A DNA stretch of 64,000 nucleotides from Acidimicrobiales bacterium (GTDB lineage: Bacteria; Actinomycetota; Acidimicrobiia; Acidimicrobiales; CATQHL01). Shown in pieces: positions 3,455 through 48,678 of this stretch. The stretch's first letter is position 1. Each line of letters starts with the position of its first letter. A program made the position numbers and the translations under genes. The stretch covers positions 1,883,419 to 1,947,418 of the forward strand of contig OY760933.1 in NCBI GenBank assembly GCA_963664235.1, written 5' to 3'. Under the pieces are notes generated by a model. That model saw nothing but the letters and a program-made list of their open reading frames with translations. It did no database searches and was not told where the DNA came from.

Positions 3455-3731
3455 CCGCAACCAAGCTGTCCTGTACCGGTCGGGCAGGCGGTGGCCGCCG
3501 GCGTCGGGCCGGCCGGGTCGCTGCCAATCTGCCTTCTTCCGGGTCGGGAGGACGGCTTCGGCGTGGTAGCGGTACAACTGGCGCCAAGGGCAGTCGCTGT
3601 CAACCTGCTCTCCTCCGGGTCGGGAGGGCCGCAGGCTCGTGACCGCCGGCGCCAAGCCGGCCAATCGCCACTGATTGCCCTCGTGCCGGGGCGATACCGA
3701 GCAGAAGAGCGCTTATCGCTAGTGTGAACCC

Positions 3732-5090
3732 GTGCGAGCGCTGCGATTCTGCATCGTGGGCGGTGGCCCGGCCGGCAATTCGTGTGCGTCGGTAGCCGCC
3801 CGGCTCGGAGCCGAGGTCACCTTGATCGAGAAGGACATCCTCGGCGGCGCCGCCAATCTCTGGGACTGCATCCCGTCCAAGGCGATGATCGCGGCAGGCG
3901 GTGTCATGTCTTTCGTGTCCCGTGCCACCGGGATGGGGCTGGATCCGGTGACGCCCACCATGGATCTGGACGGCCTGCGGGAGTACATCGAATCCACCCA
4001 GCGTCAGCTGAACGAGTCGCTGAGCCAGATGCTGGAGAGCCAGGGTGTCGACATCGTCGAGGGCACCGGCACACTCGTCGGTCCGCACGAGGTCGTTGCC
4101 GAGACCTCCGATGGTCGCCGCGAGTTCACTGCCGACGTGATTGTGTTGTCCACCGGCAGCCGTCCGCGTGTACCCGAGTGGTGTACGCCCGACGGCCGGC
4201 GTGTACTCACCACTCGCCAGGCGTACCCGCCGCCCGAGGTTCCGCAGCATCTGGTGATCATCGGTTCAGGGGTGACCGGAGTGGAGTTCGTCCACATGTT
4301 CAAGAGCTTCGGTAGCGACGTGACGCTCATCGTGAGCCGCCAGCAGGTCCTGCCGGGTAAGGACCCCGAGGTGGCCGCCCTTCTCGAGGAGAGCTTCCTG
4401 ACGCGGAAGGTGAACCTCTACAAGGGGGCCCGAGCCAAGGCAATCGATGTCCAGGGCGACGGCGTGGCGGTGCACTGCAACGATGGGCGGGTCGCCCTCG
4501 GGAGCCATGCCCTGCTGGCCGTCGGCGCGATCCCGAATTCGGAGCAACTGGGATTGGAGGCGGCCGGCGTGGAGTCCGACGGCGGCTACGTGCCGATCGA
4601 CCACAACTGCAAGAGTTCGGTGCCGCACATCTACGTCGCCGGGGACCTCAGCGGGAAGGCTCTGCTGTCGTCGGTTGCGGCGATGCAGGGTCGCAAGATC
4701 GCCGAGCACGCCATGGGGTTGCACCGGAACCGCCCGCACCGCCACATCGACTACAGCCAGGCTGCCTCGGCAGTGTTCACCGAGCCCGAGATTGCCGAGG
4801 TGGGCCTCACCGAGGCGGAAGCCACGGGCCGGAAGATCCGGGTCACCAAGATGCCGTTCTCGGTCACCCCGAAAGCTCTCATCAACAACGACCCGCGGGG
4901 TTTCCTGAAGCTGGTCTCGGACCCTGCCACGGGCGTTGTGCTCGGCGGGTCCATTGTGGGAGGCCAAGCCGCCGAGCTGATCTCGGTCGTGGCACTGGCG
5001 GTGACCGCCCATCTCACGGTGAGCGACATCTCTGAGACCCTCTTCGCCCACCCCACCCTCTCCGAAGCCCTCGGCGACGCCGCCGAGTAG
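3732..5090 (+). CDS. Pyridine nucleotide-disulfide oxidoreductase, LpdA-like NAD(P)H flavoprotein lacking the first redox cysteine
   Basis: FAD fold IVGGGPAGNSCA, dihydrolipoamide-dehydrogenase-like layout and a C-terminal dimerisation region with FAHPTLSEAL. The active-site stretch reads GGAANLWDCIPSK instead of GGTCLNVGCIPSK. GTG start is 6 nt after TAGTGT (3720-3725). Confidence 0.85.
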   Translation: MRALRFCIVGGGPAGNSCASVAARLGAEVTLIEKDILGGAANLWDCIPSKAMIAAGGVMSFVSRATGMGLDPVTPTMDLDGLREYIESTQRQLNESLSQMLESQGVDIVEGTGTLVGPHEVVAETSDGRREFTADVIVLSTGSRPRVPEWCTPDGRRVLTTRQAYPPPEVPQHLVIIGSGVTGVEFVHMFKSFGSDVTLIVSRQQVLPGKDPEVAALLEESFLTRKVNLYKGARAKAIDVQGDGVAVHCNDGRVALGSHALLAVGAIPNSEQLGLEAAGVESDGGYVPIDHNCKSSVPHIYVAGDLSGKALLSSVAAMQGRKIAEHAMGLHRNRPHRHIDYSQAASAVFTEPEIAEVGLTEAEATGRKIRVTKMPFSVTPKALINNDPRGFLKLVSDPATGVVLGGSIVGGQAAELISVVALAVTAHLTVSDISETLFAHPTLSEALGDAAE

Positions 5091-5973: not shown

Positions 5974-6876
5974 TCAGGTGTCGGCCGGATCCTGCTGCGA
6001 GCTGAAGATCGTCGGAAGGCCCTTGCGTGCGAAGTCGGGGGCGCCGTGCATGCGGCGACCGTCGATGGTGAGCATCTGGGAAGCCTCACCGCCGCAGATG
6101 CTGCCGCCGTGCGCGTCGAGGATGCTGTTGAGGCCGATCTGGCCGACGGGGTAGGAGTCGATCGCCGAATAGGTCTGCAGCAGCAACGGGCGAGGCCGCG
6201 GCGAGTTGTTCGGCAGCGAGCCGTGAATCATGCAGCAGTTGTGGACGGTCACGGACCCCGCAGGGCCATCGAGGTACACGATCCGATCGAGGTCCAACTC
6301 CGCAACGTCGGCATCATCGATTGCGCCGGCCCAGGATCCGTCGGCTCCGTATAGGTCATAGAGCGGTCCGCGATGGCTCCCGGGCAGCACCCCCATCGGC
6401 GCCATGTCGGCGTCGACGTCGCTGAGGTAGACCCCGATAGTGAGCGGCGTGAAGTCGGTGTGGGGCCAGAACTGGATGTCCTGGTGCCATTTCACCTCCG
6501 CGCCGCCGCCGGACCACTTGAAGTTGAGCTTCGAGTGGTGATACCGCACCGGCCCGCCCAGCAAAGCCGAGGCGAGTTGCGCCGGCGGACCTTCCAAGAT
6601 GAACCGCGCGTAAGTCGGGTGCCGGTCGACCGGGTAGTTGAGGCGCCGCAGCCTCGGGGCCTGCGCTGTGTGCGCCGGTTCGAGATCGAACTCCGTGCCC
6701 GAGGTGGTCTCTGAGCGGCTGGCCTCGATGAACTCCGCTGTAACCGCATTGAGTTCCTCGAGCCACTCGGCCCCGACGAAGCGAGGCAGGCACAAGTAGC
6801 CGGTCGCCTCGTACTCGGCGCGTTGGCTCTCTGAGATGAGACCCGCCGCTTCTGGGGGTGCTTCTGCCAGCGTCAT
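5974..6876 (-). CDS. Phytanoyl-CoA dioxygenase (PhyH) family Fe(II)/2-oxoglutarate oxygenase
   Basis: Motifs WHQDIQFWPHTD, LTIGVYLSDVDADMAPMGVLPGSHRG and VTVHNCCMIHGSLPN. I chose ATG 6876 (MTLAEAPP...) because TATGGT sits 6 nt upstream on the minus strand (6883-6888). The longer ORF to 7050 also runs through a 14-bp tandem repeat, which is not a multiple of 3. Confidence 0.8.
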   Translation of the reverse strand: MTLAEAPPEAAGLISESQRAEYEATGYLCLPRFVGAEWLEELNAVTAEFIEASRSETTSGTEFDLEPAHTAQAPRLRRLNYPVDRHPTYARFILEGPPAQLASALLGGPVRYHHSKLNFKWSGGGAEVKWHQDIQFWPHTDFTPLTIGVYLSDVDADMAPMGVLPGSHRGPLYDLYGADGSWAGAIDDADVAELDLDRIVYLDGPAGSVTVHNCCMIHGSLPNNSPRPRPLLLQTYSAIDSYPVGQIGLNSILDAHGGSICGGEASQMLTIDGRRMHGAPDFARKGLPTIFSSQQDPADT

Positions 6877-6966
6877 ACCCAAACCATACCGGGCGAGCCT
6901 GTCCCGCAGCCGGGTGCGGCTCTCCCGCCGCAGACTGCGGACCAGGGCGAAGACGCCCGGACGAGT

Positions 6967-7022
6967 CGCTCCGCTCGATCCGCTCCGCTCGATCCGCTCC
7001 GCTCCGTCCGCTCGCGCTGTCC
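6967..7022. repeat. 14-bp tandem repeat (cgctccgctcgatc), two perfect plus two degenerate copies
   Basis: Perfect units at 6967-6980 and 6981-6994. Degenerate units at 6995-7008 and 7009-7022. Confidence 0.75.
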
Positions 7023-7137
7023 GTTCCGCCGCGTCGCGTCCGGCCGTCACGTCTTCCCGCCCACCCGGGCCGGGGCTGCCATGTGTTGTTGGTTGTCAAG
7101 GTGCGTTCGGCTGTTCCGGGCGATGTGTCCCGTGGGG

Positions 7138-8553
7138 TTAGGCGGCCCTTCTGGGGGCGTCGCTCGGCGGCCGCTGGTTCGGGTGGCGTTCTCGGCGAGG
7201 CTGCGCGGGGGTTCTCGTGGCGACTCCCGGGGGTCTCTGCGGTCCTCGGGGTGGCCCTGTTGATTGTCGGGTGCTGATTGCCCTGGCTTCTTTGGCGTGG
7301 TGTAGGTGGTGGTGTTTGCTGCACAGCAGTGTGAGGTTGTCGAGGTTGGTGGGGCCGCCTTTCGCCCATGGGATGATGTGGTGGATTTCGCACATCCAGT
7401 GCGGTCGGTCGCAGCCGGGGGCGGTGCAGGTGCGGTCGCGGGCGATGAGCGCTCTGCGGAGGCTGGTGCTGGCGCACCGGCGGGTGTAGCCCAGATCCAG
7501 TGTGAGGCTTGGCCGGTCGAGGGCGGCGGTGAGGATGTCGGCGTCGCAGAGCAGGCGCCGGGCCGCCGCGGGCGACAGGGGAGTGGTGTCGTCGAGTTCG
7601 CAGCGGCTGTGTTCGTGCATGCCCCGCTCGAGGGTTTCGGCGTCGATGAGGAGCATGACGTCGATGTGGGAGCCGAGCGGTTCGCCGTTGTTGTCGCCGA
7701 GTTGGCGGGATCGGCGGGCCATGTCCACCAGCGCGTCGGCGTTGCGTTGCGGGCAGGTCAGTTCGGTGGCTGGGACCCCGTCGGCGTCGGGGTGTTCGGC
7801 GCGCCAGCGGGCTTCGGCGAGGCGTCGCAGTTCGTTCTCGAACAGTGCGAACTGGTCGGCGGGCAGCAGGGCCCGGGCGCCGTGCATGCCGTCATCGCCG
7901 TCGAAGGTGGTCACGCTGCGCCGGCGGCGTTGGCGCAAATCCCGTTCGGTTCCGTCATCGCCGGCGGCGAGGTCGGCCCAGCGGCGAAGGAACCGGCGGT
8001 ACTCCTCGACGCTCATCGTCTCGGCGGCGCGGATCAGCTCCGCTTGTTCATCCCGCGCTGCTTCGGCGATGCGGCGCGCCGCGCTCGGGAAGTCCAGGTC
8101 CGCGTCGATGCTGAGATCCACGTCGGCGGGCAAGGCGATCTGTGTGAGCGCCTGTGTGTGGCCGTGGGTGATACGTCCCTCGGCGAGAGCTTCGCCGACC
8201 TCGGGCAGTTCCTCCAGCGCGAACGCGGTGCGCGCCCGGGCGAGGGCCTCGCGGCGGCTCACGCCCGCCACGCTGCGCAGCCAGCCGGCGGTGTCCACCG
8301 CGCCCGTTTCCCGGGCTACGTTGCGCTGCTCCGCCTCAGCCAGAACCTCCGCCTCGTAGGCATCCAGCCAGGCACGCGCCATCCGCACGGCCCGCAGGCA
8401 AGCACCCAGACCGTCCGCGCCGGCAACTGCCGCGGGTCGACGACACAGCACCCGCAGCACCGCCAGCAAGCGCCCGAAGGCTGGGGCCCCGGCGCCGCTG
8501 TTCCCACAAGCGGCAGCCGAGTTGCTTCGGCCTTCGGCGACTGTTCGATTCAC
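7138..8553 (-). CDS. DUF222 / HNH endonuclease (mycobacterial REP13E12-like family)
   Basis: C-terminal HNH signature CTAPGCDRPHWMCEIHHIIPWAKGGPTNLDNLTLLCSKHHHLHH follows a long DUF222-like helical N-terminal region. I chose the GTG at 8553 (VNRTVAEG...) because it lies 7 nt after a TAAGGT -10 element with an upstream TGTCACAC box. The longer ORF to 8727 would overlap fxsA and its promoter. Confidence 0.85.
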   Translation of the reverse strand: MNRTVAEGRSNSAAACGNSGAGAPAFGRLLAVLRVLCRRPAAVAGADGLGACLRAVRMARAWLDAYEAEVLAEAEQRNVARETGAVDTAGWLRSVAGVSRREALARARTAFALEELPEVGEALAEGRITHGHTQALTQIALPADVDLSIDADLDFPSAARRIAEAARDEQAELIRAAETMSVEEYRRFLRRWADLAAGDDGTERDLRQRRRRSVTTFDGDDGMHGARALLPADQFALFENELRRLAEARWRAEHPDADGVPATELTCPQRNADALVDMARRSRQLGDNNGEPLGSHIDVMLLIDAETLERGMHEHSRCELDDTTPLSPAAARRLLCDADILTAALDRPSLTLDLGYTRRCASTSLRRALIARDRTCTAPGCDRPHWMCEIHHIIPWAKGGPTNLDNLTLLCSKHHHLHHAKEARAISTRQSTGPPRGPQRPPGVATRTPAQPRRERHPNQRPPSDAPRRAA

Positions 8554-8560
8554 GAGGACA

Positions 8561-8582
8561 ACCTTACGAAAGGGGTGTGACA
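8561..8582 (-). promoter_or_regulatory. Candidate damage-type promoter TGTCACAC-N8-TAAGGT, 7 nt upstream of the HNH GTG (leaderless)
   Basis: Minus strand reads CTGTCACAC CCCTTTCG TAAGGT TGTCCTC GTG. The box and spacings are identical to the site at 13455-13476. Confidence 0.5.
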
Positions 8583-8600
8583 GTCCCCTCCCGGCCCGCC

Positions 8601-8622
8601 TGTCGCCACCGCTGCCTACGCT
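8601..8622 (+). promoter_or_regulatory. Candidate damage-type promoter TGTCGCCA-N8-TACGCT, 7 nt upstream of the fxsA ATG (leaderless)
   Basis: Plus strand reads TGTCGCCA CCGCTGCC TACGCT GAGGGTG ATG. It lies back to back with the HNH promoter. Confidence 0.45.
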
Positions 8623-8629
8623 GAGGGTG

Positions 8630-9172
8630 ATGTTCGTCGTCCTGCTCCTGGTGCTGCTCGGCATTCCCGTGGCGGAGATCTTCTTCATCATCCGGGTGGC
8701 TCGAGATCTGGGTATTCCCGAGACCATCGGCCTGCTGGTGGCGGTGTCGATTGCCGGGGCGTGGTTGGTGCGCCGTTCCGGCCTCGGCGTGCTGCGTCAG
8801 ATCCAGGAGCGACTCGCCCGCGGCGAGATCCCCGGCAAGGAACTCGTGGACGGCCTGCTGATCCTCGTCGGCGGCCTGCTGATGCTGACGCCGGGCTTCC
8901 TGACCGACGCCGTGGGGCTGCTGCTGCTCGTCCCTCCGACCCGGCTGGCGCTGCGGGCGCTGCTGGTCCGCCGGTACAGCAAGCGGATCCGGGTCGCCGG
9001 CTGGAACGCCGGCCCGGGCGTCTTCGGTGTCGGGGGATTCGGTCGGCGCGGCGCCGGCGGATTCGGCCCCGAGACCGGGCCGGACCGGGGCGACGTTCGC
9101 GACGTCAGAGAGCCGCGTGCGCTACGCAAGGGCCGGAAACGCAGAGAGAAACCGGGCAACAGTCAGGCCTGA
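8630..9172 (+). CDS. fxsA: FxsA family membrane protein
   Basis: MFVVLLLVLLGIPVAEIFFIIRVARDLG, GEIPGKELVDGLLILVGGLLMLTPGFLTDAVGLLLLVPPTR is the typical FxsA/UPF0716 core. Start set at ATG 8630, not TTG 8522. Confidence 0.8.
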   Translation: MFVVLLLVLLGIPVAEIFFIIRVARDLGIPETIGLLVAVSIAGAWLVRRSGLGVLRQIQERLARGEIPGKELVDGLLILVGGLLMLTPGFLTDAVGLLLLVPPTRLALRALLVRRYSKRIRVAGWNAGPGVFGVGGFGRRGAGGFGPETGPDRGDVRDVREPRALRKGRKRREKPGNSQA

Positions 9173-9214
9173 CCGGCACACCGCCTCACCGGCACAAACG
9201 CCCTGAGTCGCCCC

Positions 9215-10276
9215 TCAGGCGGACAGTTCCTCCCGCACGATGGCCGCTCCGGCGGCGAGCGCTGACAACTTGGCGAATGCGACTTCGCGTGACAGGTACT
9301 TCATGCCGCAGTCGGGTGCGGGGATCAGCCGGTCCGCCGACATGTATTGCAGCGCCTCGCGGATCCGCTGCGCCACCGTCTCGGGCGTTTCCACGGTGGC
9401 GTCGCCGTTGTCGATCACGCCGAGTACCACGGTCTTGTCGGGCAGCCTCTTCAGGATGTCCAGGTCGATCCCTGGCTGCGCCGCTTCGATGGAGATCTGA
9501 TCGATTGCGCTGACGTTCAACTCCGGGAGGAAGGCGTAGGCGTCGGGCTTGCCGAGCCCCCGCCAGGCGTGGATGGCGGCGTAGCCGAAGCACATGTGCA
9601 GCACAGTCGTCCCGGTGACCCCGTCGAGTGCCTCGTCGAGCACCTCGACGGCGTACTGGGAGGCCTTGTCGGGTTTGGCCTGCATGTACGGCTCGTCGAG
9701 TTGCACCACGTCGGCCCCGGCGTCGAACAGGTCCTTGAGTTCCCGGTTGACCACCTTGGCGTAGGCGGAGGCGGCCTTGCGCTCGTCGCCGTAGTGGTCG
9801 TCCTGGGCCTGCTGGATCAGCGTGAACGGTCCCGGCAGGGTCAACTTGACGGCGCGAGTGCTGTGGGCTCGCAGCAGCTCGAGGTCGCGCACGCCGATCG
9901 GGGTGGGCCGGGTGATCGGACCGGCGATGCGCGGAACCGGATTCGGCTTGCCGGTGCGGTCCATGGCGGTGCCGTGGCGGTCGGGGTCGATGCCTCCGAG
10001 GGCGGTGGCGAAGCGGTTGGAGTAGCTCTCGCGGCGGATCTCACCGTCGGTGATGATGTCGATGCCGGCGCTCTCCATCTCGCCGATCGCCACGGTGGTG
10101 GCGTCGTCCTGGGCCTCTTGGAGGCGCTCCGGCGGGATCCGCCAGAGCTCTCTGGCTCGCACCCGTGGCGGCAGCCGGGTGCACAGCGCAGGCCGATCGA
10201 TCAGCCAGTCCGGCTGCGGATAGCTCCCCACCACGGCTGTCGGCAACAGCACGCCGCCGAGCCTAACGGACCCCAT
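9215..10276 (-). CDS. Cobalamin-independent methionine synthase family protein (MetE catalytic-domain-only type)
   Basis: VVGSYPQPDWLIDR, GIDIITDGEIRRESYSN, VVQLDEPY and IPAPDCGMKYL match the MetE C-terminal (URO-D-like) fold. Start set at ATG 10276 (MGSVRLGG...). The upstream part of the 489-aa ORF overlaps the dprA-like gene and is Arg/Ser/Pro-rich. The start may be off by about 15 nt (GTG 10291). Confidence 0.75.
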   Translation of the reverse strand: MGSVRLGGVLLPTAVVGSYPQPDWLIDRPALCTRLPPRVRARELWRIPPERLQEAQDDATTVAIGEMESAGIDIITDGEIRRESYSNRFATALGGIDPDRHGTAMDRTGKPNPVPRIAGPITRPTPIGVRDLELLRAHSTRAVKLTLPGPFTLIQQAQDDHYGDERKAASAYAKVVNRELKDLFDAGADVVQLDEPYMQAKPDKASQYAVEVLDEALDGVTGTTVLHMCFGYAAIHAWRGLGKPDAYAFLPELNVSAIDQISIEAAQPGIDLDILKRLPDKTVVLGVIDNGDATVETPETVAQRIREALQYMSADRLIPAPDCGMKYLSREVAFAKLSALAAGAAIVREELSA

Positions 10277-10367
10277 CCAGCCGTGAGCCACCCGACAACC
10301 ACCGGCGAACTGCCGGCCGCCCCCCGCCACGCTGGCGCCTATCACCGCATTCAGCGGTCGGCATTGC

Positions 10368-11339
10368 TCAGTCGAAGAGTGTGGGCTGGGGCCGGGGCGA
10401 TACTCGATCTGCCTGGAGCATCTCGACGCCGGCAGGTTCGGTGGGCTCCAGCACCGCCGCTTCGAGTTCGTCCAGCGATGTGATCGGCACCGCCCCCCGC
10501 TCCTCGAGTGGCGCGTTGCCCGGACCCTCGCCCGGGCCTCGCCACACGGCCACCCGACCGAAGCCACGTCGGAGGGCCTCCGTCGCACCGGCCCAGGTAC
10601 CACCCGTGTCGACGTCGGCGGTGACCACGAGCGTGAGATCGGACAGGGCGTAGATGAGCTTGTTGCGTCCCATGGCGCTGCCAACGCTGAAGGGCGCCTC
10701 CGGGCTGTAGGGCGTGCACATCACGGTGCGCCCGTCGTGAATAGCCCGACGGATGTCGGCACTGCGGAGCTTGCGCGCCAGCGACTCCGCCAGCACGCCC
10801 ACGACCGCTCCGCCGGCCTCGAAGGCGGCGTTCATGGCGATCTGATCGACGCCCCTGGCGCCGCCGGACACCAATGGCAGACCCAGCCGCGCCGCCACTT
10901 CGGCCGCCGCCCCAGCGACTCGGGCACCGTCGGGCGACACGTTGCGACTCCCCACCACCCCGACGCCCGGCCGGTCGAGCAACTCGACGGCACCCGCCGC
11001 GTACAGCAGCACCGGCGCAGAGGTCCCGAGCCGCTCGATGAGCCGTCCCGGATAGTCCGTGTCGAACGGAGTGAATGTCGAGATGCCCGCCTGCCCCAAC
11101 CGATCCAACTCGAACGCCATGCCGGTCGCCCGATCCAGCAGAGCCACCACCCGCGCAGCCATCTCGGCGGCCAGACCGTGTTCGCTGACAAGCTTGGTTT
11201 CGTCGACGCCCAGCAGCAGGCTCGGCCCACCGACCAGGTCGCACAGCCTCCAGAACTCCGACGCCTTGAGGGGCCGGGCCTCGTCGTTGCCGATCCGGCT
11301 CAACAGCAGGATCGTCGCCAGCGAGTCGTCGTGATTCAC
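10368..11339 (-). CDS. DprA/Smf-like (SLOG Rossmann) DNA-processing protein, partner of the RecQ-PRTase helicase
   Basis: VGVVGSRNVSPDGARVAGAAAEVAARLGLPLVSGGARGVDQIAMNAAFEAGG, FSVGSAMGRNKLIYALSDLTLVVTADVDTGGTWAGATEALRRG. The GTG start at 11339 overlaps the helicase TGA stop (GTGA, 11339-11336), indicating translational coupling. Confidence 0.85.
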   Translation of the reverse strand: MNHDDSLATILLLSRIGNDEARPLKASEFWRLCDLVGGPSLLLGVDETKLVSEHGLAAEMAARVVALLDRATGMAFELDRLGQAGISTFTPFDTDYPGRLIERLGTSAPVLLYAAGAVELLDRPGVGVVGSRNVSPDGARVAGAAAEVAARLGLPLVSGGARGVDQIAMNAAFEAGGAVVGVLAESLARKLRSADIRRAIHDGRTVMCTPYSPEAPFSVGSAMGRNKLIYALSDLTLVVTADVDTGGTWAGATEALRRGFGRVAVWRGPGEGPGNAPLEERGAVPITSLDELEAAVLEPTEPAGVEMLQADRVSPRPQPTLFD

Positions 11340-13447
11340 GTGACCGATCTGCCGGCCGTGTCGGCCAACGCGAACGGGTGCACCGGCCCGGCGCCCGCCT
11401 CGCGGAGCTTCCCGCCCACGACCGTCAGCGTCCATCTGGAGTCGACGATGTCGTCCACGAGCAGAACCGGTTCGGGGGCGACGGTCCCACGAATATCGAA
11501 CGTCTCCCGCACGTTCGCGTATTGTCGGCGGCTGTTCTGCATCATCGTCTGGGGCTCAGCATCCCGGATCTTCACGACGACATCTTCACACGGGAGCCCC
11601 AGCGCCGTTGCCAGCCGCTCGGCGAAGCCCGCAACCAACCCGGGACTGCGGAGCGAGGGCACGAAGGTCACCCAGGTCGGTGATGGGTCCGGCTTCCAGC
11701 GATTCCGGATCAGATCCCCCGCAGCGCTGACGAGTTGGCTATCGAATCGCCCGAGTTCCTGCTTGCCAGACCGCACGAGGCGGCCCCATCCGCTGTCACC
11801 CCACATCGACAGCGCATGCCCCGGCTCGAGTCGTCGGTCGGCTGCGATCCGACCCTCACCCGGCAGCAGCTTGCGGGGTTCAATGGCTCGACCGGCTCGG
11901 CGCAGGTGGTCCACCGCATTTTGAACGGTCGCCGGGTCGAACGGGATGGCGAGGCTGTCGCCGGTGCAGTTGTCGCAGACGCCGCATGGTTCCGCAGTCG
12001 CATCGTCGAGATAGAACTCGAGCAGCTGCATGCGACACCGGTCCGTGCGGACGTAGTCGAGCATCTGCCCTTGCTCGGTCCTGCGCAGGGCGGTTACCGA
12101 CTCGACCCGGGCGTGGTCGTACGTCCAGCCCCCGAGAGTCCGCAGCCAGCGGCTGCCGGCACGTTCGACTGCACCGTCGACCTCCAGGTTCTTGAGAAGC
12201 GACTCCATCTGCGTGGGCCGGACATTGAAGGATCCGAGCAGGTCGTTGGTGGACATTGGTTCTGCCCGCTCTTCGAGGAGTGCCACGACGCGTTCAGCGA
12301 GATCAGGAGGCGGGAACGCCGAGCGGATGAAGTAGTCCTGAATGTCGGCGTCCTCGGTGCCGCGCAGCAGGATCCCCCAGGACTCATCGAGCGCCCGCCC
12401 GGCACGGCCGACCTGCTGGTAGTAGGCGATCGGCGATCCCGGCGACTGGTAGTGGATCACGAAGGAGAGGTTGGGCTTGTCGAAGCCCATGCCGAGAGCA
12501 GAGGTCGCCACCACCGCCTTCACATCGTTGGACAGGAGGGCCTGCTCGGTTTCGATCCGTTCGTCGGGGTCCGTACTGCCGCTGTAGGCGACGGCGTTGA
12601 TTCCCTCCGATCGCAGCCAGCCCGCAACCCGCTCGGTGTCGGCGACGGTGAGGCAGTAGACGATGCCCGTCCCGTCCAGTTCCAGAAGGACCGCGGCGAG
12701 CCAGGTCAGGCGCTCGGCCTGCGAGGGGATGTCGAGTGCGTGCAGTCTTAGGCCGGCGCGCCGCAGCGGACCCCTCACCAGGGGAAGACCCGAGCCGAGT
12801 TGTACGGCGACATCCTCAGTAACGCGGTCGTTCGCAGTCGCCGTACAGCACAGGATGGGCACCCCGGCCGGCAGGAGCCCCAGAACGCGCGTGATGCGCC
12901 GGTAGTCGGGACGGAAGTCGTGGCCCCAGTCGGAGATGCAGTGCGCCTCGTCGATCACCAAGAGGCCGCTGCGACGACCAACCTCGGGCAGGACATCGGT
13001 GCGGAACTTCGGGTTGGCCAGCCGCTCGGGCGAGATCAGCAGCAGGTCGACTGTGTCCTCAGCCAGCCTTCCCAGTACGAGATCCCAGTCGTCGCGGTTG
13101 GTGCTGTTGATCGTCTCGGCCCGCACGCCCATCCGTTGCGCCGCCTCGATCTGGTTGCGCATCAGCGCCAGAAGCGGCGAGACCAGCAGCGTCGGCCCGC
13201 TGCCGCGGTCCCGCAGCATCCGGGTGGCGATGAAGTACACGGCGCTCTTGCCCCAGCCGGTGCGCTGCACCAGCAGCACCCGCTCACGCCGCCCCACCAG
13301 CCGCTCGATCGCCTCCAACTGATTCGGCCGGAACTCCGCACCCGGATCCCCTGTGAGCCGCCGCAGTAGCCCGAGAGCCTCTCCAGCGAGCCTCGGCTCC
13401 CGCGCCGAAGGCCCGCCCGATCCCGATCCAGCTGACCGACTTGTCAT
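11336..13447 (-). CDS. RecQ-family (RqlH-like) DNA helicase with a C-terminal ComF/phosphoribosyltransferase-like domain
   Basis: Helicase motifs: FRPNQLEAI, QRTGWGKS, LVIDEAHCISDWGHDFRPDY, CCTATAN and YYQQVGRAGRA. A RecQ Zn-finger is present (CRMQLLEFYL...EPCGVCDNC). The C-terminal roughly 140 aa have a PRTase-type core (VTFVPSLRSPGL..., EPVLLVDDIVDSRWTL) in which the usual TTG(A)T loop is replaced by DSRWT. ATG 13447 was chosen as start because it lies 7 nt after TAGGGT with an upstream TGTCACAC box. Confidence 0.9.
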   Translation of the reverse strand: MTSRSAGSGSGGPSAREPRLAGEALGLLRRLTGDPGAEFRPNQLEAIERLVGRRERVLLVQRTGWGKSAVYFIATRMLRDRGSGPTLLVSPLLALMRNQIEAAQRMGVRAETINSTNRDDWDLVLGRLAEDTVDLLLISPERLANPKFRTDVLPEVGRRSGLLVIDEAHCISDWGHDFRPDYRRITRVLGLLPAGVPILCCTATANDRVTEDVAVQLGSGLPLVRGPLRRAGLRLHALDIPSQAERLTWLAAVLLELDGTGIVYCLTVADTERVAGWLRSEGINAVAYSGSTDPDERIETEQALLSNDVKAVVATSALGMGFDKPNLSFVIHYQSPGSPIAYYQQVGRAGRALDESWGILLRGTEDADIQDYFIRSAFPPPDLAERVVALLEERAEPMSTNDLLGSFNVRPTQMESLLKNLEVDGAVERAGSRWLRTLGGWTYDHARVESVTALRRTEQGQMLDYVRTDRCRMQLLEFYLDDATAEPCGVCDNCTGDSLAIPFDPATVQNAVDHLRRAGRAIEPRKLLPGEGRIAADRRLEPGHALSMWGDSGWGRLVRSGKQELGRFDSQLVSAAGDLIRNRWKPDPSPTWVTFVPSLRSPGLVAGFAERLATALGLPCEDVVVKIRDAEPQTMMQNSRRQYANVRETFDIRGTVAPEPVLLVDDIVDSRWTLTVVGGKLREAGAGPVHPFALADTAGRSVT

Positions 13448-13454
13448 GATGCGA

Positions 13455-13476
13455 ACCCTACGAGGGGGGTGTGACA
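13455..13476 (-). promoter_or_regulatory. Candidate damage-type promoter TGTCACAC-N8-TAGGGT, 7 nt upstream of the helicase ATG (leaderless)
   Basis: Minus strand reads CTGTCACAC CCCCCTCG TAGGGT TCGCATC ATG. Confidence 0.5.
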
Positions 13477-13611
13477 GCGAGCCTCGCGGGATCCGTCCTG
13501 GGCGCGGGCGTGGTGGGTCCGCCGCGCTCGCCGCGGGCGTGCGGTTGCCGATCGGTCCTCGGGCGAGCGCGCCGTGCGCGACCGGTGAGCGCATCCGACA
13601 GGTGCGGCCGG

Positions 13612-14154
13612 TCAGACGAGTGCCCGGATGGCTCCCACCGACCGGTAGTTGCGGGCCGTCATCTCGGTCCCGATGAGCCGGTGCAATCGCTCGACCAGTT
13701 TGGACCGGCCGAACCCACCGGGGGTGTGGAGGTAGAAGACCCTCTCGGTCAGCACGAACTCCTCGCCTTGCGTGGCCAATGCCCGCAGGCCGTCCAGGTC
13801 GGCGGTCGGATCGGGCTCGGCGAGGAAGAAGAAGTGGACCGCCCTCGGATCCTGGTCGCTCCGGGAGAACGGGTTCTCAGCGATGGCGGTGTCGAAGGCA
13901 TCGACGTCGAGGACGAACGTGTGAGGAGCGAACCCGAAGCGCCCCTCGATGGCACCCTGAACCGAGCGGGCCACCGAGTCACGGTCGCCGTCCGACGAGT
14001 CCAGAACGATGTTGCCGCTCTGGATGTACGTGCGAACGTTCTCAAAGCCGACCTCGGTGAGCAGCTCGCGGAGCGCAACCATCGGCAGCTTGCGACGCCC
14101 ACCGACGTTCACGCCCCGCAGGAGCACGATCCAAGTCGTCATCACCGCCAGCAT
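13612..14154 (-). CDS. DUF1697 domain protein
   Basis: [44 protein letters not shown] is the characteristic DUF1697 N-terminus. The start could instead be ATG 14142. Confidence 0.8.
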
Positions 14155-14262
14155 CCCACGGCCCGCCCACCCGCAATCCGATTAACGTCCTGCGCAAGCG
14201 TCGCCTGCTCAGATACAAGGCCGTCGGGTCGCTTCGGGCTTCGCCGACGTCTGGGCGGGGAC

Positions 14263-14284
14263 TGTCGTATGCCACGTCTATCGT
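14263..14284 (+). promoter_or_regulatory. Candidate damage-type promoter TGTCGTAT-N8-TATCGT, 7 nt upstream of the macro-domain gene ATG (leaderless)
   Basis: Plus strand reads TGTCGTAT GCCACGTC TATCGT CGGCAAC ATG. Confidence 0.45.
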
Positions 14285-14291
14285 CGGCAAC

Positions 14292-15254
14292 ATGGCTGAA
14301 GCTCGACGAGCCGCAGGTCGGGACGACTGGGAGACACACCCGCTAACGCTGCCGGAGGCGATTCCGCCGCCCGCCCGGACCTGGACGGAAGCGGAGATGG
14401 CCCAGATCCGGCTCGGCTACATCCCCAGCATCATGGATGAGAAGTGGTTCATCTTCATGGAGGGGGACCGCTTGTTCGCTCATCGCAGTTGGACAGGTCT
14501 GGGTGTCTACGAGGCGACCTTCACGCCGACCGACGGCGGGTACATCGTCAGCTCAGCGTCCGTTACCGGTGACCGGGCCCAGTACAAGCGCTCCTCGGAT
14601 CAGGACGAGTCCCAGATCCTCGAAGCGCTCATCGCCGGCCACCTGCTCAGCCAATCGCTCACCGAGTCGCAGTTGACAGACAAGAGCCCACATCTTCGCT
14701 GGGAACTGTCGGTCCCCAACATCCCGAAGGAGGCGTTCATTCTGCCTGTCGTCGAGACGGAGGGCCCCGAGTTGAGTCTCGTCGTGGGCGACATCACCGA
14801 ACTGCCCATCGATGCCATCGTGAACGCGGCCAATTCCACGCTCCTCGGCGGCGGGGGCGTCGACGGGGCCATCCATCGAGCTGCCGGACCCGAACTCCTC
14901 CAGCACTGCCGCACGCTGGGCGGTTGCGAGACCGGGCAGGCCAAGATCACGCCGGGCTTCGATCTGGCGGCCCGGTGGGTGATCCACACCGTCGGGCCGG
15001 TCTGGGGCGGCGGCAACCAAGGTGAGCCCGAGCTGCTGGCCTCCTGCTACCGGGAGTCGTTGGCCCGGGCCGACGAGGTCGGGGCCGAGACCGTTGCGTT
15101 CCCGGCGATCTCAACGGGGGTCTACGGCTACCCGATCGAAGCGGCAGCAGCCGTCGCCGTCGAGACTGTTCGCTCCACGCCCACCGACGTCACCGAGGTC
15201 AGCTTCGTCGCCTTCAACCAGGAGACCTACGACGCCTACGCTGCACTCCTCTGA
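14292..15254 (+). CDS. Macro domain (ADP-ribose binding/hydrolase, YmdB-like) protein with an unrecognised N-terminal domain of about 150 aa
   Basis: The C-terminal half has [43 protein letters not shown] and [14 protein letters not shown] do not recognise the N-terminal half ([34 protein letters not shown]). Confidence 0.85.
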
Positions 15255-15280
15255 GAGAGCCACCGGAGGGAATCGAAACC

Positions 15281-15349
15281 GTGCCTGCTCCAACCACTGG
15301 GATCCCCACGCGATCTGTTGCGGGTCGTCGACCGGGCAGCCGCCAGTGA
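15281..15349 (+). CDS. Possible 22-codon upstream ORF coupled to the redoxin gene
   Basis: GTG 15281 is preceded by GGAGGG, 8 nt upstream. The ORF (VPAPTTGIPTRSVAGRRPGSRQ) ends in a TGA that overlaps the downstream GTG (GTGA at 15346-15349). No homology is recognisable. Confidence 0.3.
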   Translation: MPAPTTGIPTRSVAGRRPGSRQ

Positions 15350-15843
15350 CAACGCCATCAGAGTTCCCGCCGGCACCTGAGTTGGCGATCAGCCGCTGGT
15401 TCAACACCGACGACGCCCCGACCCTGGCGGGCCTCAGGGGCGAGGTCGTTGTGATCGAGGCGTTCCAGATGCTCTGCCCCGGCTGCGTCTCCCACGGGTT
15501 GCCGCTGGCGAAGCGAATCCACCAGACATTCGGCGACGAGCTGACCGTGCTGGGGCTGCACTGCGTGTTCGAGCATCACGAGGCCATGACCCCGGTCTCC
15601 CTAGAGGCGTTCCTGCACGAGTACCGCATCGACTTCCCGGTGGGGGTCGACGACTACGAGTCCGGCGTCACGACACCCATCACGATGGCCCTCTACCAGC
15701 TGCGGGGCACACCGAGCCTGGTGGTCGTCGACCGGGCCGGCCGCATCCGCGTTCATGCCTTCGGACAGGCGGACGACCTCCTCGTCGGCGCCACGCTGGC
15801 CCGCCTCATCGACGAACCTCGCCCCCGGTCGGCCGACGACTGA
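15346..15843 (+). CDS. Thioredoxin-fold redoxin (TlpA/AhpC-TSA-like)
   Basis: VVVIEAFQMLCPGCVSHGLP (CxxC motif) and LRGTPSLVVVDRAGRI. The 273-aa track ORF overlaps the macro gene, so the start was set at in-frame GTG 15346. This start is uncertain. Confidence 0.7.
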   Translation: MTTPSEFPPAPELAISRWFNTDDAPTLAGLRGEVVVIEAFQMLCPGCVSHGLPLAKRIHQTFGDELTVLGLHCVFEHHEAMTPVSLEAFLHEYRIDFPVGVDDYESGVTTPITMALYQLRGTPSLVVVDRAGRIRVHAFGQADDLLVGATLARLIDEPRPRSADD

Positions 15844-46506: not shown

Positions 46507-47088
46507 TCAGTCCTGCTTGGACCGGCCGGCGGCCTTCTGTTCCTTTTTCCAGGCGCGCACCCGGGCGAGGGCTTCGGGGCCGTCGATGTCGGCCACCGAG
46601 CGGGGGGTGTCGTCGGCGAAGGGACCGGCGTGGCGCTCCCAACCGTCGGGGCGGACGGTGAAGCGCTTGGCCAGGATGGCCAGGAAGATCATGGACTTCT
46701 CGTCGCCGTAGCCGGGCAGCGCCCGCAGGCGGTCGTAGAGCTCCTGGCCGCTGCGGGCCGAGGACCACACCGCCCCGGCGTCGCCGTCGTATTGCTCGGC
46801 GATCTGGCGGCACAACTCGTGGGCGCGGCGGGCCATCGCAGCGGGGAAGCGGTGCAGCGCGGGCTTGGTGCCGAAGGTGGCCTCCAGGTCGGCGGGGTCC
46901 ATGGCCGCAATGGCGGGGGCGTCCAGCTCGCCCCCGAGCCGTTCGGCCAGCCGGTACGGCGACTTGAACGCCCACTCCATGGGGATCTGCTGATCCAGCA
47001 GCATTGCCAGCAGCAGCGCCAGCGGTTCGTTGTTGACGAGCGCGTCAGCGGCCTCATCACCGGTGACGGCAAGGGTTCCGGTGGTCAT
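46507..47088 (-). CDS. HhH-GPD-type base excision DNA repair family protein
   Basis: LALLLAMLLDQQIPMEWAFKSPYRLAERLG and LRALPGYGDEKSMIFLAILAKRF. ATG 47088 is 6 nt after TACGCT (47095-47100). Confidence 0.8.
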   Translation of the reverse strand: MTTGTLAVTGDEAADALVNNEPLALLLAMLLDQQIPMEWAFKSPYRLAERLGGELDAPAIAAMDPADLEATFGTKPALHRFPAAMARRAHELCRQIAEQYDGDAGAVWSSARSGQELYDRLRALPGYGDEKSMIFLAILAKRFTVRPDGWERHAGPFADDTPRSVADIDGPEALARVRAWKKEQKAAGRSKQD

Positions 47089-47235
47089 AACCCGAGCGTA
47101 CCGGCCACGCGTGGCGCTCGCAGCGGGCCATTGGCGGCGCGCCGAGCCGTTCCGGCTCGGCGGTAGCGTGCCGGGAGTCATGCCCCGGCCGCGGCGAGTG
47201 CGCCCGGCGGTGCGTGGAGCTCGCTTGGAGGCAAT

Positions 47236-48678
47236 GTGAGACGGCCACGAGAAGGCGCGCCGGTCTCACGGCGGGCGTGGGTGGTGCTGGGAGTGGCGTG
47301 CATCAGCATCTTCCTGGTGGTGATCGACGCCTCCATCGTGAACGTGGCGTTCCCCACTATCGGCGCCGATCTCAACACCACCGACGCCGTGCTGTCGTGG
47401 ATCCTGACCGCTTACAACGTGACTGTCGCCTCGCTGCTGCTGCTGGCCGGGCGGACCGCCGACAGGCTGGGGCGGAAGCGGGTCTTTCTCGTCTCGGTGG
47501 CCGTCTTCACGCTGGGGTCGCTGCTGTGCAGCCTCGCCCCGGACGCAGGCTCGCTCATCGCCTTCCGGGTGGTGCAAGCAGTCGGCGGCTCGGCGATCTT
47601 CCCGTCATCTCTGGCGCTGGTGCTGCCGGAGTTCCCCGTCGAGCGGCGCTCGGCGGCCGTGGGAATCTGGTCTGCGGTGGCCGGATTCGGCGGGGCGGTC
47701 GGCCCGTCCGCCGGGGCGCTGCTGATCGAACTGTTCGGGTGGCGGGGGATCTTCTGGGCGAGCGTCCCCCTGGGCGCCGCCGTCGTGGTGCTGGGTCGTC
47801 GCTACCTGACCGAGACGCGGGTGGTAACCGACACCGGGCGCCTCGACTTCATCGGCGTCCCGGTGAGTGTGCTGGGAGTGGCACTCGTGCTACTCGCTGT
47901 CGTACAGGCCGAGCACTGGGGCTACACCAGTGTCCGGACGCTCACGCTGGCGTGTGTGGGCCTGGCCCTGCTACCGGTCCTGGTGTGGCGGTCGCGCCGC
48001 CATCCTTCGCCGGTGCTGGACCTGTCGCTGTTCGGTATCCCGTCGTTCCGGGTGGCCACGTTCGCCACGATCTTCTTCGGGTTCGCCTTCCTGGGCGGGT
48101 TCTTCTTGAACTCGCTGCTGTTGCAGCGTCTCTGGGAGTGGCCGGTCTGGAAGACCGGACTCGGTCTCAGTCCCAGCCCGCTGATTTCGGTCGTGGCCTC
48201 CTGGTGGGCCGGCCGCACCGCCGACCGTCTCGGCCACCGCTGGCTCACCACGGCGGGGAGCGGGCTGTGCGTCGCTGCGTTCTCGTGGCAGTTCTGGCGC
48301 GTCGGCTCCGTTCCGGACTACTGGTCGGACTTCCTGCCGTCCATGCTGATGCTTGGAGTCGGCGTGGGGCTGGCGATCACCTGCATCACGGCCGCGCCCT
48401 TGGCGGACCTAAGCAGCGACCAGTTCGCCATGGGAAACGCCACGGCTCGCACGGTGCAGCAGCTCTGCTACGGCGTTGGTGTGGCCGCCATCGTGGCGCT
48501 GCTTGGCACCGGCGGCGCCGAGGATCTCACCCGCTACCCGCGTGCGTGGATCTGGCTCATCTGCTCCTACGCCTCGGCGGGGCTGACGATGGCGCTGCTC
48601 TACCCCTCCGGCAGCGCCGCCGGCCGGGCGCGCGCCGCCTCAGGACCCGCTGGGGAGGTGCGCTCGCCGGCTAGGTGA
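47236..48678 (+). CDS. MFS transporter, DHA2/EmrB-like (14-TMS type)
   Basis: FLVVIDASIVNVAFPTIGADL and LLLLAGRTADRLGRKRVFL. GTG is preceded by GGAGG. The other-frame 486-aa ORF at 47214 is rejected. Confidence 0.9.
   Translation: MRRPREGAPVSRRAWVVLGVACISIFLVVIDASIVNVAFPTIGADLNTTDAVLSWILTAYNVTVASLLLLAGRTADRLGRKRVFLVSVAVFTLGSLLCSLAPDAGSLIAFRVVQAVGGSAIFPSSLALVLPEFPVERRSAAVGIWSAVAGFGGAVGPSAGALLIELFGWRGIFWASVPLGAAVVVLGRRYLTETRVVTDTGRLDFIGVPVSVLGVALVLLAVVQAEHWGYTSVRTLTLACVGLALLPVLVWRSRRHPSPVLDLSLFGIPSFRVATFATIFFGFAFLGGFFLNSLLLQRLWEWPVWKTGLGLSPSPLISVVASWWAGRTADRLGHRWLTTAGSGLCVAAFSWQFWRVGSVPDYWSDFLPSMLMLGVGVGLAITCITAAPLADLSSDQFAMGNATARTVQQLCYGVGVAAIVALLGTGGAEDLTRYPRAWIWLICSYASAGLTMALLYPSGSAAGRARAASGPAGEVRSPAR

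Follow-up and report, generated by a model that had tools for sequence, protein, structure and literature searches.

Why should four genes lying within 6 kb of one another in a genome of the class Acidimicrobiia carry the same unusual promoter? The question arises in a 64,000-nucleotide stretch of contig OY760933.1 from an Acidimicrobiales bacterium (assembly GCA_963664235.1; the whole stretch is called the window below). A preliminary description of this DNA had pointed to the sequence TGTCR-N11-TANNNT ahead of a DUF222-HNH endonuclease gene (site 1), fxsA (site 2), an operon for a RecQ-like helicase-phosphoribosyltransferase (PRTase) fusion and a DprA-like protein (site 3), and a macro-domain fusion gene (site 4). 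It had likened these sites to the RecA-independent damage promoters (RecA-NDp) that the activator PafBC binds in mycobacteria, and had proposed a local damage-response island. Our analysis indicates that the four sites probably do constitute a set of PafBC-type promoters, for which the support is firm at the HNH gene and at the helicase gene, here called psyrT, and doubtful at fxsA and the macro gene.

Four promoters share one motif in one register

All four sites were present in the window exactly as first written. On both strands, TGTCR-N11-TANNNT gave 4 matches against 0.51 expected, a number that was reached in 0 of 100 dinucleotide shuffles of the window, and a spacer altered by -1 or +1 nt gave no match at all. 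When the register was counted from GTC, the relaxed form GTC-N12-TANNNT returned the same four sites and no others; a spacer of N11 returned nothing, and one of N13 a single unrelated match. Past each of the four copies, 7 nt lead to the start codon of a real gene. For the helicase (703 aa) and FxsA (180 aa), these starts agree with public gene calls, which for the HNH and macro genes choose internal Met codons instead of the leaderless starts.

A window-wide scan for leaderless-type configurations, defined as TANNNT-N6-8-ATG/GTG followed by a long open reading frame (ORF) with high GC at third codon positions, found 15 of them, and GTC occupied the motif position only in the four sites. The remark that some 11 other leaderless promoters lack TGTC was therefore borne out, with 11 others having no GTC at that position. 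Base composition gives a probability of ~0.0014 for TGTCR at a fixed position, as rare as had been supposed, and thus only ~0.02 chance matches would be expected among 15 leaderless promoters. The ~40 other genes of the window, nearly all of which are housekeeping genes (SUF, ATP-binding cassette transporters, pyruvate dehydrogenase E1, acyl-CoA enzymes and others), have no such site.

No -35 element was seen at any of the four sites. A consensus scan of positions 6800-15400 found no sigma-70-type -35/-10 pair, and the sequence 17 nt upstream of each -10, read directly, holds nothing resembling TTGACA. Two other regulatory signals were considered and rejected. SOS boxes (TCGAAC-N4-GTTCGA, up to 2 mismatches) matched three times in the window, no more than chance and never near the four promoters, and so give no evidence for dual control by LexA. 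Small inverted repeats that overlap the -10, CCCT/AGGG at site 3 and CCTT/AAGG at site 1, were judged to be chance rather than palindromic operators, because their loop lengths differ.

The likeness of the sites could in principle stem from a dispersed repeat, such as the ends of mobile elements, instead of a regulatory signal, since sites 1 and 3 are identical at 18 of 22 positions, site 1 is found right at one end of an inserted segment, and tandem copies ~115 nt apart occur in one related locus (L095). However, the similarity stops at the 22-23 nt of the promoter, sites 2 and 4 share the motif positions only, the insertion has no terminal repeats, and site 3 is kept orthologously before a chromosomal gene across the class and, in a TGTCGG form, across the phylum. 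We regard a dispersed repeat as very improbable.

The motif agrees with PafBC-dependent promoters

PafBC-dependent promoters, also called RecA-NDp or P1 promoters, are reportedly associated with Gamulin 2004 and Muller 2018. The motif obtained by chromatin immunoprecipitation sequencing of PafBC is the 22-nt tGTCgg(N10)tA(N3)T, with a 5′ part that spans -23 to -28, a 3′ part formed by the SigA -10 and no -35; two G:C pairs of the GTC triplet at about -26 are contacted by R46 and R50 of PafB (PMC8635444). PafBC activated by single-stranded DNA (ssDNA) is described as bridging sigma region 4 and the DNA, which is termed sigma adaptation (PMC8635444; PMC10693628). PafBC is said to be present in almost every actinobacterial species, Acidimicrobiia not being named, and the published promoter alignments cover the class Actinomycetes only (PMC8635444).

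All four sites contain TGTC(A/G), with the GTC triplet, and all four keep the 22-nt register of GTC, 12 nt and TAnnnT, so that the proposed match to the mycobacterial promoter agrees in both sequence and register. By analogy with the mycobacterial mechanism, each site would be a hybrid promoter in which a SigA -10 hexamer (TAnnnT) is accompanied not by a -35 but by the TGTC(R) element, with its GTC 12 nt upstream of the -10. The WYL-domain activator PafBC, switched on by ssDNA from DNA damage or phage attack, would insert between sigma region 4 and the DNA, read the GTC and let the housekeeping RNA polymerase start. Judging from the geometry, transcription would begin 6-8 nt after the -10, at or beside the start codon, and the mRNAs would thus be leaderless.

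Table 1. Promoter sites, genes and other features of the window (coordinates counted from its first nucleotide), followed by rqlH promoters from the class Actinomycetes
Feature	Position	Strand	Sequence or supporting match
Site 1	8561..8582	-	TGTCACACCCCTTTCGTAAGGT + TGTCCTC + GTG (8553); TGTCACACCCCTTTCG-TAAGGT = -26 GTC element + -10
Site 2	8601..8622	+	TGTCGCCACCGCTGCCTACGCT + GAGGGTG + ATG (8630); TGTCGCCACCGCTGCC-TACGCT; exact motif match
Site 3	13455..13476	-	TGTCACACCCCCCTCGTAGGGT + TCGCATC + ATG (13447); TGTCACACCCCCCTCG-TAGGGT
Site 4	14263..14284	+	TGTCGTATGCCACGTCTATCGT + CGGCAAC + ATG (14292); TGTCGTATGCCACGTC-TATCGT
Segment of ~1.7 kb in this genome only (HNH gene, promoter and 3′ non-coding tail)	6905..8597 (boundaries approximate)		Synteny with L081, L082, L092, L093
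DUF222 + HNH endonuclease gene, 13E12/REP13E12-like, 471 aa from leaderless GTG	7138..8553	-	Pfam DUF222 2.5e-23, HNH 5.7e-08
fxsA, FxsA family membrane protein, 180 aa	8630..9172	+	Pfam FxsA 1.6e-33; NCBIfam NF008528; identical public gene call
psyrA / rqlI, DprA-like antitoxin, 323 aa	10368..11339	-	PADLOC PsyrA E=3.1e-82; Pfam DNA_processg_A
psyrT / rqlH, RecQ-like helicase-PRTase fusion, 703 aa, PsyrTA toxin	11336..13447	-	PADLOC PsyrT E=2.9e-263, profile positions 7-686 of 689; Pfam DEAD, Helicase_C, RecQ_Zn_bind, Pribosyltran
DUF1697 gene between sites 3 and 4, no motif, context only	13612..14142	-	Pfam DUF1697 2.3e-42; no GTC-N12-TANNNT nearby
N-terminal domain (~residues 1-160) fused to MacroD/YmdB-type macrodomain, 320 aa	14292..15254	+	Pfam Macro 1.5e-46; NCBIfam O-acetyl-ADP-ribose deacetylase
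Tsukamurella rqlH promoter			TGTCGGTGGGGCCGTC; -10-like TAGCCT; 31-nt leader; element TGTCGGTG-N8-TAGCCT
Arthrobacter ERGS1 rqlH promoter			TGTCGGTGGCCGCTGG; -10-like GATACT; +7, ATG (RefSeq start)
Arthrobacter StoSoilB13 rqlH promoter			TGTCAGGGGCTGCTGG; -10-like AATACT; +6, ATG
Streptomyces BHT-5-2 rqlH promoter			TGTCGGTGGCATCCGG; -10-like TTGCAT; +6, ATG
Nonomuraea rqlH promoter			CGTCGGGTGAAGCTGG; -10-like TAACAA; +7, ATG

Site 3 precedes a PsyrTA toxin-antitoxin operon

Site 3 is the best supported of the four, and we are highly confident that it is a real PafBC-type promoter. The gene identities first proposed for the four sites were upheld by Pfam (DUF222 with HNH; FxsA; DEAD, Helicase_C, RecQ_Zn_bind and PRTase, then a DprA-like protein; Macro fusion). 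The operon behind site 3, however, is not the generic repair operon it had been taken for, since PADLOC identifies it as PsyrTA (RqlHI), and its gene content is that of this system, with a RecQ-like helicase that has a C-terminal PRTase domain and an adjoining DprA-like gene in the same operon. The GTG start of psyrA overlaps the psyrT stop (GTGA), which indicates that the two are co-transcribed from site 3. Their pairing is kept in more than 50 loci from many phyla, and around 80 psyrT homologues no synteny of the four motif genes was found beyond psyrA. PsyrTA (RqlHI), a system reportedly linked to Sberro 2013, is a toxin-antitoxin pair whose toxicity requires the PRTase domain, and a validated anti-phage system; for homologues of the window pair, both the relief of toxicity by the antitoxin and the protection from phage are known (PMC4670107; bioRxiv 10.1101/2022.05.11.491447).

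Conservation upstream of orthologues was clear at this site. The motif, kept in nine Acidimicrobiia-type relatives, immediately precedes psyrT in two close ones, L082 and L092, and in the more distant Acidimicrobiia or Actinomycetota loci L001, L002, L005, L007 and L033, while L037 has it with CGTC for TGTC; ~55 non-actinobacterial psyrT homologues gave only two relaxed, non-TGTC matches. Among rqlH homologues of the class Actinomycetes on annotated replicons, all five have (T/C)GTC(G/A)G, of the TGTCGGTG type, in the same register and followed by a -10-like hexamer (Table 1). In M. smegmatis, the level of RqlH protein (MSMEG_5935) was 1.9-fold lower in a pafBC deletion (PMC5656591), MSMEG_5935 having been identified as RqlH (PMC3378886). 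With this drop and the phylum-wide footprint taken together, rqlH/psyrT looks like a phylum-wide member of the PafBC-type regulon, as far as promoter sequences can tell.

Downstream of psyrA, the MetE-like gene is served by a separate leaderless promoter (TAGGCT+7+GTG 10252; window 10252-10274, minus strand) that has no GTC, so that the gene probably lies outside the psyrTA transcript; its mechanically listed ORF of 489 aa is too long, relatives calling 345 aa. Several observations concern psyrT loci elsewhere. In L082 (~8100-8229), the ORF past the conserved psyrT promoter breaks off after 60 codons, and the match to PsyrT is confined to its C-terminal half; the gene may be a pseudogene or carry an assembly frameshift. 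Unlike the window, Arthrobacter ERGS1 (L217) and Tsukamurella (L220) have no psyrA-like gene annotated beside the rqlH homologue. In a Limnocylindrales locus of the Chloroflexota (L026, 4185-4553), a macrodomain gene directly follows psyrA, which may point to some functional connection of PsyrTA with ADP-ribose processing.

Site 1 arrived with an inserted DUF222-HNH gene

In four syntenic relatives (L081, L082, L092 and L093), of which L081 has 93% nucleotide identity, the gene order is PhyH - fxsA - metE-like - psyrA - psyrT - DUF1697, and 110-185 bp of unrelated spacer takes the place of ~6905-8597, with no DUF222-HNH gene. Terminal inverted repeats and a target-site duplication were looked for at the ends of the segment and none were found. 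Judged by this synteny, the HNH gene is a recent 1.7-kb insertion that brought its own promoter. The 3′ non-coding tail of the HNH gene, within the inserted segment, contains a 14-nt tandem repeat at 6957-7012 (CCGCTCCGCTCGAT-like, 3-4 copies).

The 3.49-Mb source contig holds two DUF222-HNH copies, P0140 (100% identical) and P0160 (91%), which makes the gene multi-copy, and one relative has three. Thus the gene resembles 13E12 genes in its DUF222 and HNH domains (Pfam), its copy number and its variable presence among relatives. In M. tuberculosis, 13E12 genes carry RecA_NDp and are damage-induced (PMC3381160), so the assignment of this gene family to the regulon, as given in the preliminary description, is documented.

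The promoter accompanies the gene into another genomic context. A 90%-identical homologue beside rpoZ, gmk and pyr genes (L094) has TGTCACACCCCCTTTCTATATT+7+GTG-AAC, that is, the same promoter and a leaderless V-N start, and the GTG start of the window gene is supported by the fact that this homologue starts with V-N at the same promoter offset. A 65% homologue (L095) has three motif units ~115 nt apart upstream of its DUF222-HNH gene and one before the neighbouring DNA methyltransferase gene. We consider it very likely that site 1 is a real PafBC-type promoter. Seen as a whole, the L095 region 3586-4914 holds four motif copies in 1.3 kb, including the one ahead of the methyltransferase gene, which is of the N6/N4 type. 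Within these copies, GTCACAC is repeated in inverted orientation by the sequence that spans the -10 (TAGTGTGAC), to give GTCACAC...GTGTGAC, a feature that the window sites do not share. The macro orthologue of L087 directly follows a DUF222-HNH gene whose element has its spacer shortened by 1 nt.

Sites 2 and 4 are less certain

At the macro gene, conservation upstream of orthologues was partial. The exact motif is kept in L089 (TGTCGCATGCCGCACCTATCGT+7+ATG; 88% identity), and a precedent exists in Streptomyces coelicolor, where the macrodomain gene SCO6735 has a conserved RecA-NDp promoter (PMC9411070). We think it somewhat more likely than not that site 4 is a real PafBC-type promoter. At fxsA, TACGCT, N7 and the start codon are kept in all four close relatives (L081, L082, L092, L093), and the -26 element was not found conserved upstream of these orthologues: L081 has TGCC for TGTC, GTC is 3 nt closer in L082 and 6 nt closer in L092, and L093 has no GTC. 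The element would then be specific to this lineage and may be a recent gain or a chance match, as may the -26 element of site 4. For site 2 the balance tips slightly against a real PafBC-type promoter.

These variants weigh against reading all four sites as PafBC-type promoters, the fxsA element being conserved in none of the four close relatives. Three macro relatives (L084, L090, L091) keep TATCGT+N7+GTG with GTCAC 4 nt further upstream, and the more distant macro orthologues L085, L086 and L088 have no -26 element. On the same side stand several features of the set as a whole. The bases after GTC are mostly CAC here (CACAC at sites 1 and 3) versus gg or Ggtg in mycobacteria, so that the -26 element of the lineage is mostly TGTCAC rather than TGTCGG; the 7 nt from the -10 to the start are 1 more than in the -12/-7 register drawn for M. 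smegmatis; the 64-kb window has no WYL gene such as pafB or pafC, and no recA or lexA; and no classical repair gene in the window bears the motif, an HhH-GPD glycosylase gene at 46507-47265 being without it.

One alternative is that only sites 1 and 3 are genuine, and that at sites 2 and 4 an otherwise ordinary leaderless promoter of SigA carries a fortuitous, or very recent and unselected, TGTCR. The fxsA variants just described fit it, as do the three macro relatives (84-88% identity) with the displaced GTCAC and the distant orthologues with none. The upstream parts of sites 2 and 4 (TGTCGCCA, TGTCGTAT) also have no TGTCAC(A/G) extension of the kind seen at most sites of the lineage. Published precedents were found for 13E12 genes, for RqlH and for a macrodomain, and a literature search for a link between FxsA and PafBC found none. 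However, with ~0.02 chance matches expected among 15 leaderless promoters, two fortuitous sites would be very unlikely; L089 keeps the macro site without any change to the motif, and a macrodomain gene under RecA-NDp is not without precedent; and if GTC at -26 together with a -10 suffices, even a fortuitous match would respond to PafBC. We find a restriction to sites 1 and 3 rather unlikely, and prefer the four-site set.

As to the genes themselves, FxsA homologues were searched for on annotated actinobacterial plasmids without a match. The best PDB sequence matches of the macro protein are DR_2288, MACROD2 and YmdB. Its long start is supported by the conservation of residues 10-35; public gene calls of the source genome truncate the protein at Met36. 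In the N-terminal domain (residues 1-165, window 14292-14786), W52, H64-R65-S66 and T68-G69 are invariant in 30 homologues. This domain had no Pfam match and no PDB fold match (best E 0.037), and AlphaFold predicts for it a beta-sheet and a long helix (mean confidence score, pLDDT, 81.5).

The same promoter type in relatives and on viral contigs

In 300 kb of Acidimicrobiia-type loci, there were 9 strict matches to the motif against 3.5 expected. All nine have a start codon 6-9 nt on, and a long ORF follows in eight, the ninth being the 60-codon L082 case. Matches in L092, L094 and L095 also lie 6-9 nt before a start codon, with a long ORF wherever there was enough sequence to check. The genes downstream are psyrT (six loci), macro, TnpB, a DUF433 toxin-antitoxin, DUF5131 (TGTCT variant), McrB (CGTC variant), a DNA methyltransferase and HNH, and the consensus of the -26 element in this lineage is TGTCAC(A/G). 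Individual instances ahead of TnpB (OrfB_IS605), McrB, DUF433 toxin-antitoxin and DUF5131 genes are at L085 10784, L087 4743 and 4776, and L084 3071 and 729; in L087, the McrB promoter with the CGTC variant is divergent from the HNH promoter.

Viral contigs were scanned with TGTCACACCCC-N5-TANNNT, and the counts given here are among the matches listed. Of these, 55% lay inside ORFs of at least 100 codons, versus 80% for random positions, and many are probably due to chance. At no fewer than eight viral loci (at least eight, from four unrelated sequence families), however, a PD-(D/E)XK Cas4-like nuclease gene starts 6-8 nt past the motif. The contigs concerned are L102, L103, L108 and L123/L129/L163/L171/L174, with a GC content of 0.45-0.64. 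This suggests that phages, possibly of both low-GC and high-GC Actinomycetota, may use the same promoter type.

It could be asked whether TGTCAC-N10-TAnnnT is instead a lineage-specific promoter class of some factor other than PafBC, for example a SiwR-like WYL activator, ClgR or a mobile-element or phage factor, in which case no damage response would be required. Positions 5-8 read CAC(A/G) instead of the mycobacterial GGTG, the inverted repeat GTCACAC...GTGTGAC occurs in L095, and the same element precedes the phage Cas4-like nuclease genes. Other WYL activators that bind at -26 exist, and ClgR was once reported to bind RecA-NDp (cited in PMC5656591). A SiwR-type element was nevertheless rejected for the window sites, since SiwR reads GGA at -26, within a palindrome, and not GTC (PMC10693628), and the L095-type inverted repeat is not found at these sites. 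In its invariant bases and in its spacing, the element has just what PafB reads, a GTC placed 12 nt ahead of TA. Moreover, in Mycobacteriales, Micrococcales and Streptomyces the element before rqlH/psyrT takes the canonical TGTCGGTG form, which speaks for a single conserved regulator throughout the phylum, and RqlH of M. smegmatis depends on PafBC (PMC5656591). Control by another factor thus appears improbable, and PafBC remains the preferred activator.

A broader reading, which we offer tentatively and think more doubtful than the regulon itself, is that the leaderless -26/-10 promoter of PafBC type is a portable cassette of mobile elements, defence systems and phages of Actinomycetota. The instances behind it are DUF222-HNH, PsyrTA, TnpB, McrB with its CGTC variant, the DNA methyltransferase, the DUF433 toxin-antitoxin and the Cas4-like nuclease on viral contigs. 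If it is true, the host's ssDNA-sensing activator would be a common trigger for defence, selfish and phage genes from Mycobacteriales to deep-branching Acidimicrobiia, and new members like fxsA could be recruited by a single-base or indel change beside an existing leaderless -10.

A variable region rather than a repair island

The window is most closely related to sponge-associated metagenome-assembled genomes (MAGs). The nearest relatives of the helicase are in Acidimicrobiales MAGs at ~70% identity, including 'Candidatus Poriferisodalis', and homologues of the macro protein come from Acidimicrobiia or 'Candidatus Poriferisocius'. To the right of the macro gene, synteny is kept in L084, L087, L089, L090 and L091 (AhpC-like, biotin carboxylase, biotin protein ligase, flavin reductase, SUF); to its left, the same loci have a variable hotspot where genes for type I restriction-modification, ParE/PhD toxin-antitoxin, PIN, McrBC and HNH proteins occur. 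By this comparison of flanks, the macro gene is at the edge of a hypervariable defence-gene hotspot.

The damage-response island originally envisaged does not survive this comparison: with an HNH gene that is absent from the four syntenic relatives and a macro gene at the edge of a variable hotspot, the region is not a coherent inherited unit. It would be better described as a variable mobile and defence region whose members individually carry damage-type promoters than as a repair island. The genes wired in this way would be mostly mobile or conflict-related, namely a multi-copy selfish DUF222-HNH gene, PsyrTA/RqlHI and a MacroD-type ADP-ribose hydrolase fusion, with fxsA apparently added to the regulon in this genome only.

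No new mechanism is revealed here; the locus is a new instance of a known regulon. What it would add is an extension of the PafBC/RecA-NDp promoter class from the class Actinomycetes to uncultured, sponge-associated Acidimicrobiia, and a putative tie between a validated anti-phage toxin-antitoxin system, PsyrTA, and the ssDNA-sensing damage activator of actinobacteria. Two natural experiments come with it: the insertion of a DUF222-HNH gene together with a damage-type promoter of its own, and a series of fxsA promoters whose -26 elements vary by a single base or short indels.

Comparison with known systems

Control of defence genes by nucleic-acid-sensing WYL proteins is also known from other phyla, where WYL activators link the response to DNA damage with defence against phage, as in Moraxellaceae (PMC12392091) and with regulators of the BrxR/CapW type (PMC9122601). 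Those regulators are encoded beside their targets or belong to other families, whereas here no regulator gene lies nearby and the motif is that of PafBC. SCO6735 (PMC5087735, PMC9411070) likewise is an ADP-ribose hydrolase gene behind a RecA-NDp-type promoter, but its product is of the TARG1/ALC1 class, and the window protein is of the MacroD/YmdB class and is fused to a conserved 160-residue domain.

The operon behind site 3 shares with PsyrTA/RqlHI the full-length matches to the PsyrT and PsyrA profiles, the adjacent, translationally coupled genes and the occurrence in many phyla. What sets it apart is the PafBC-type promoter ahead of the toxin gene, found here as across Actinomycetota; in the PsyrTA/RqlHI literature found, control of the paired toxin-antitoxin or defence form by a damage activator is not described. 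The HNH gene resembles REP13E12/13E12 of M. tuberculosis in its DUF222-HNH architecture, multiple copies, presence/absence polymorphism and RecA_NDp promoter (PMC3381160), although the window protein is only ~30-35% identical to DUF222 proteins of Actinomycetes, and no SOS box accompanies the window gene.

The closest comparison is with the PafBC/RecA-NDp class itself. The four sites differ from it in their host, of the class Acidimicrobiia and outside the published alignments, in the bases after GTC, mostly CAC(A/G) where mycobacteria have GGTG, and in an apparently leaderless layout of all instances, with the start codon 6-9 nt past the -10. They share with it the bipartite 22-nt motif, in which 12 nt separate GTC from a TAnnnT -10 downstream, the want of a -35 and the position ahead of 13E12/DUF222-HNH genes, RqlH and a macrodomain gene, and the mechanism expected by analogy is the same, sigma adaptation by an ssDNA-sensing WYL activator.

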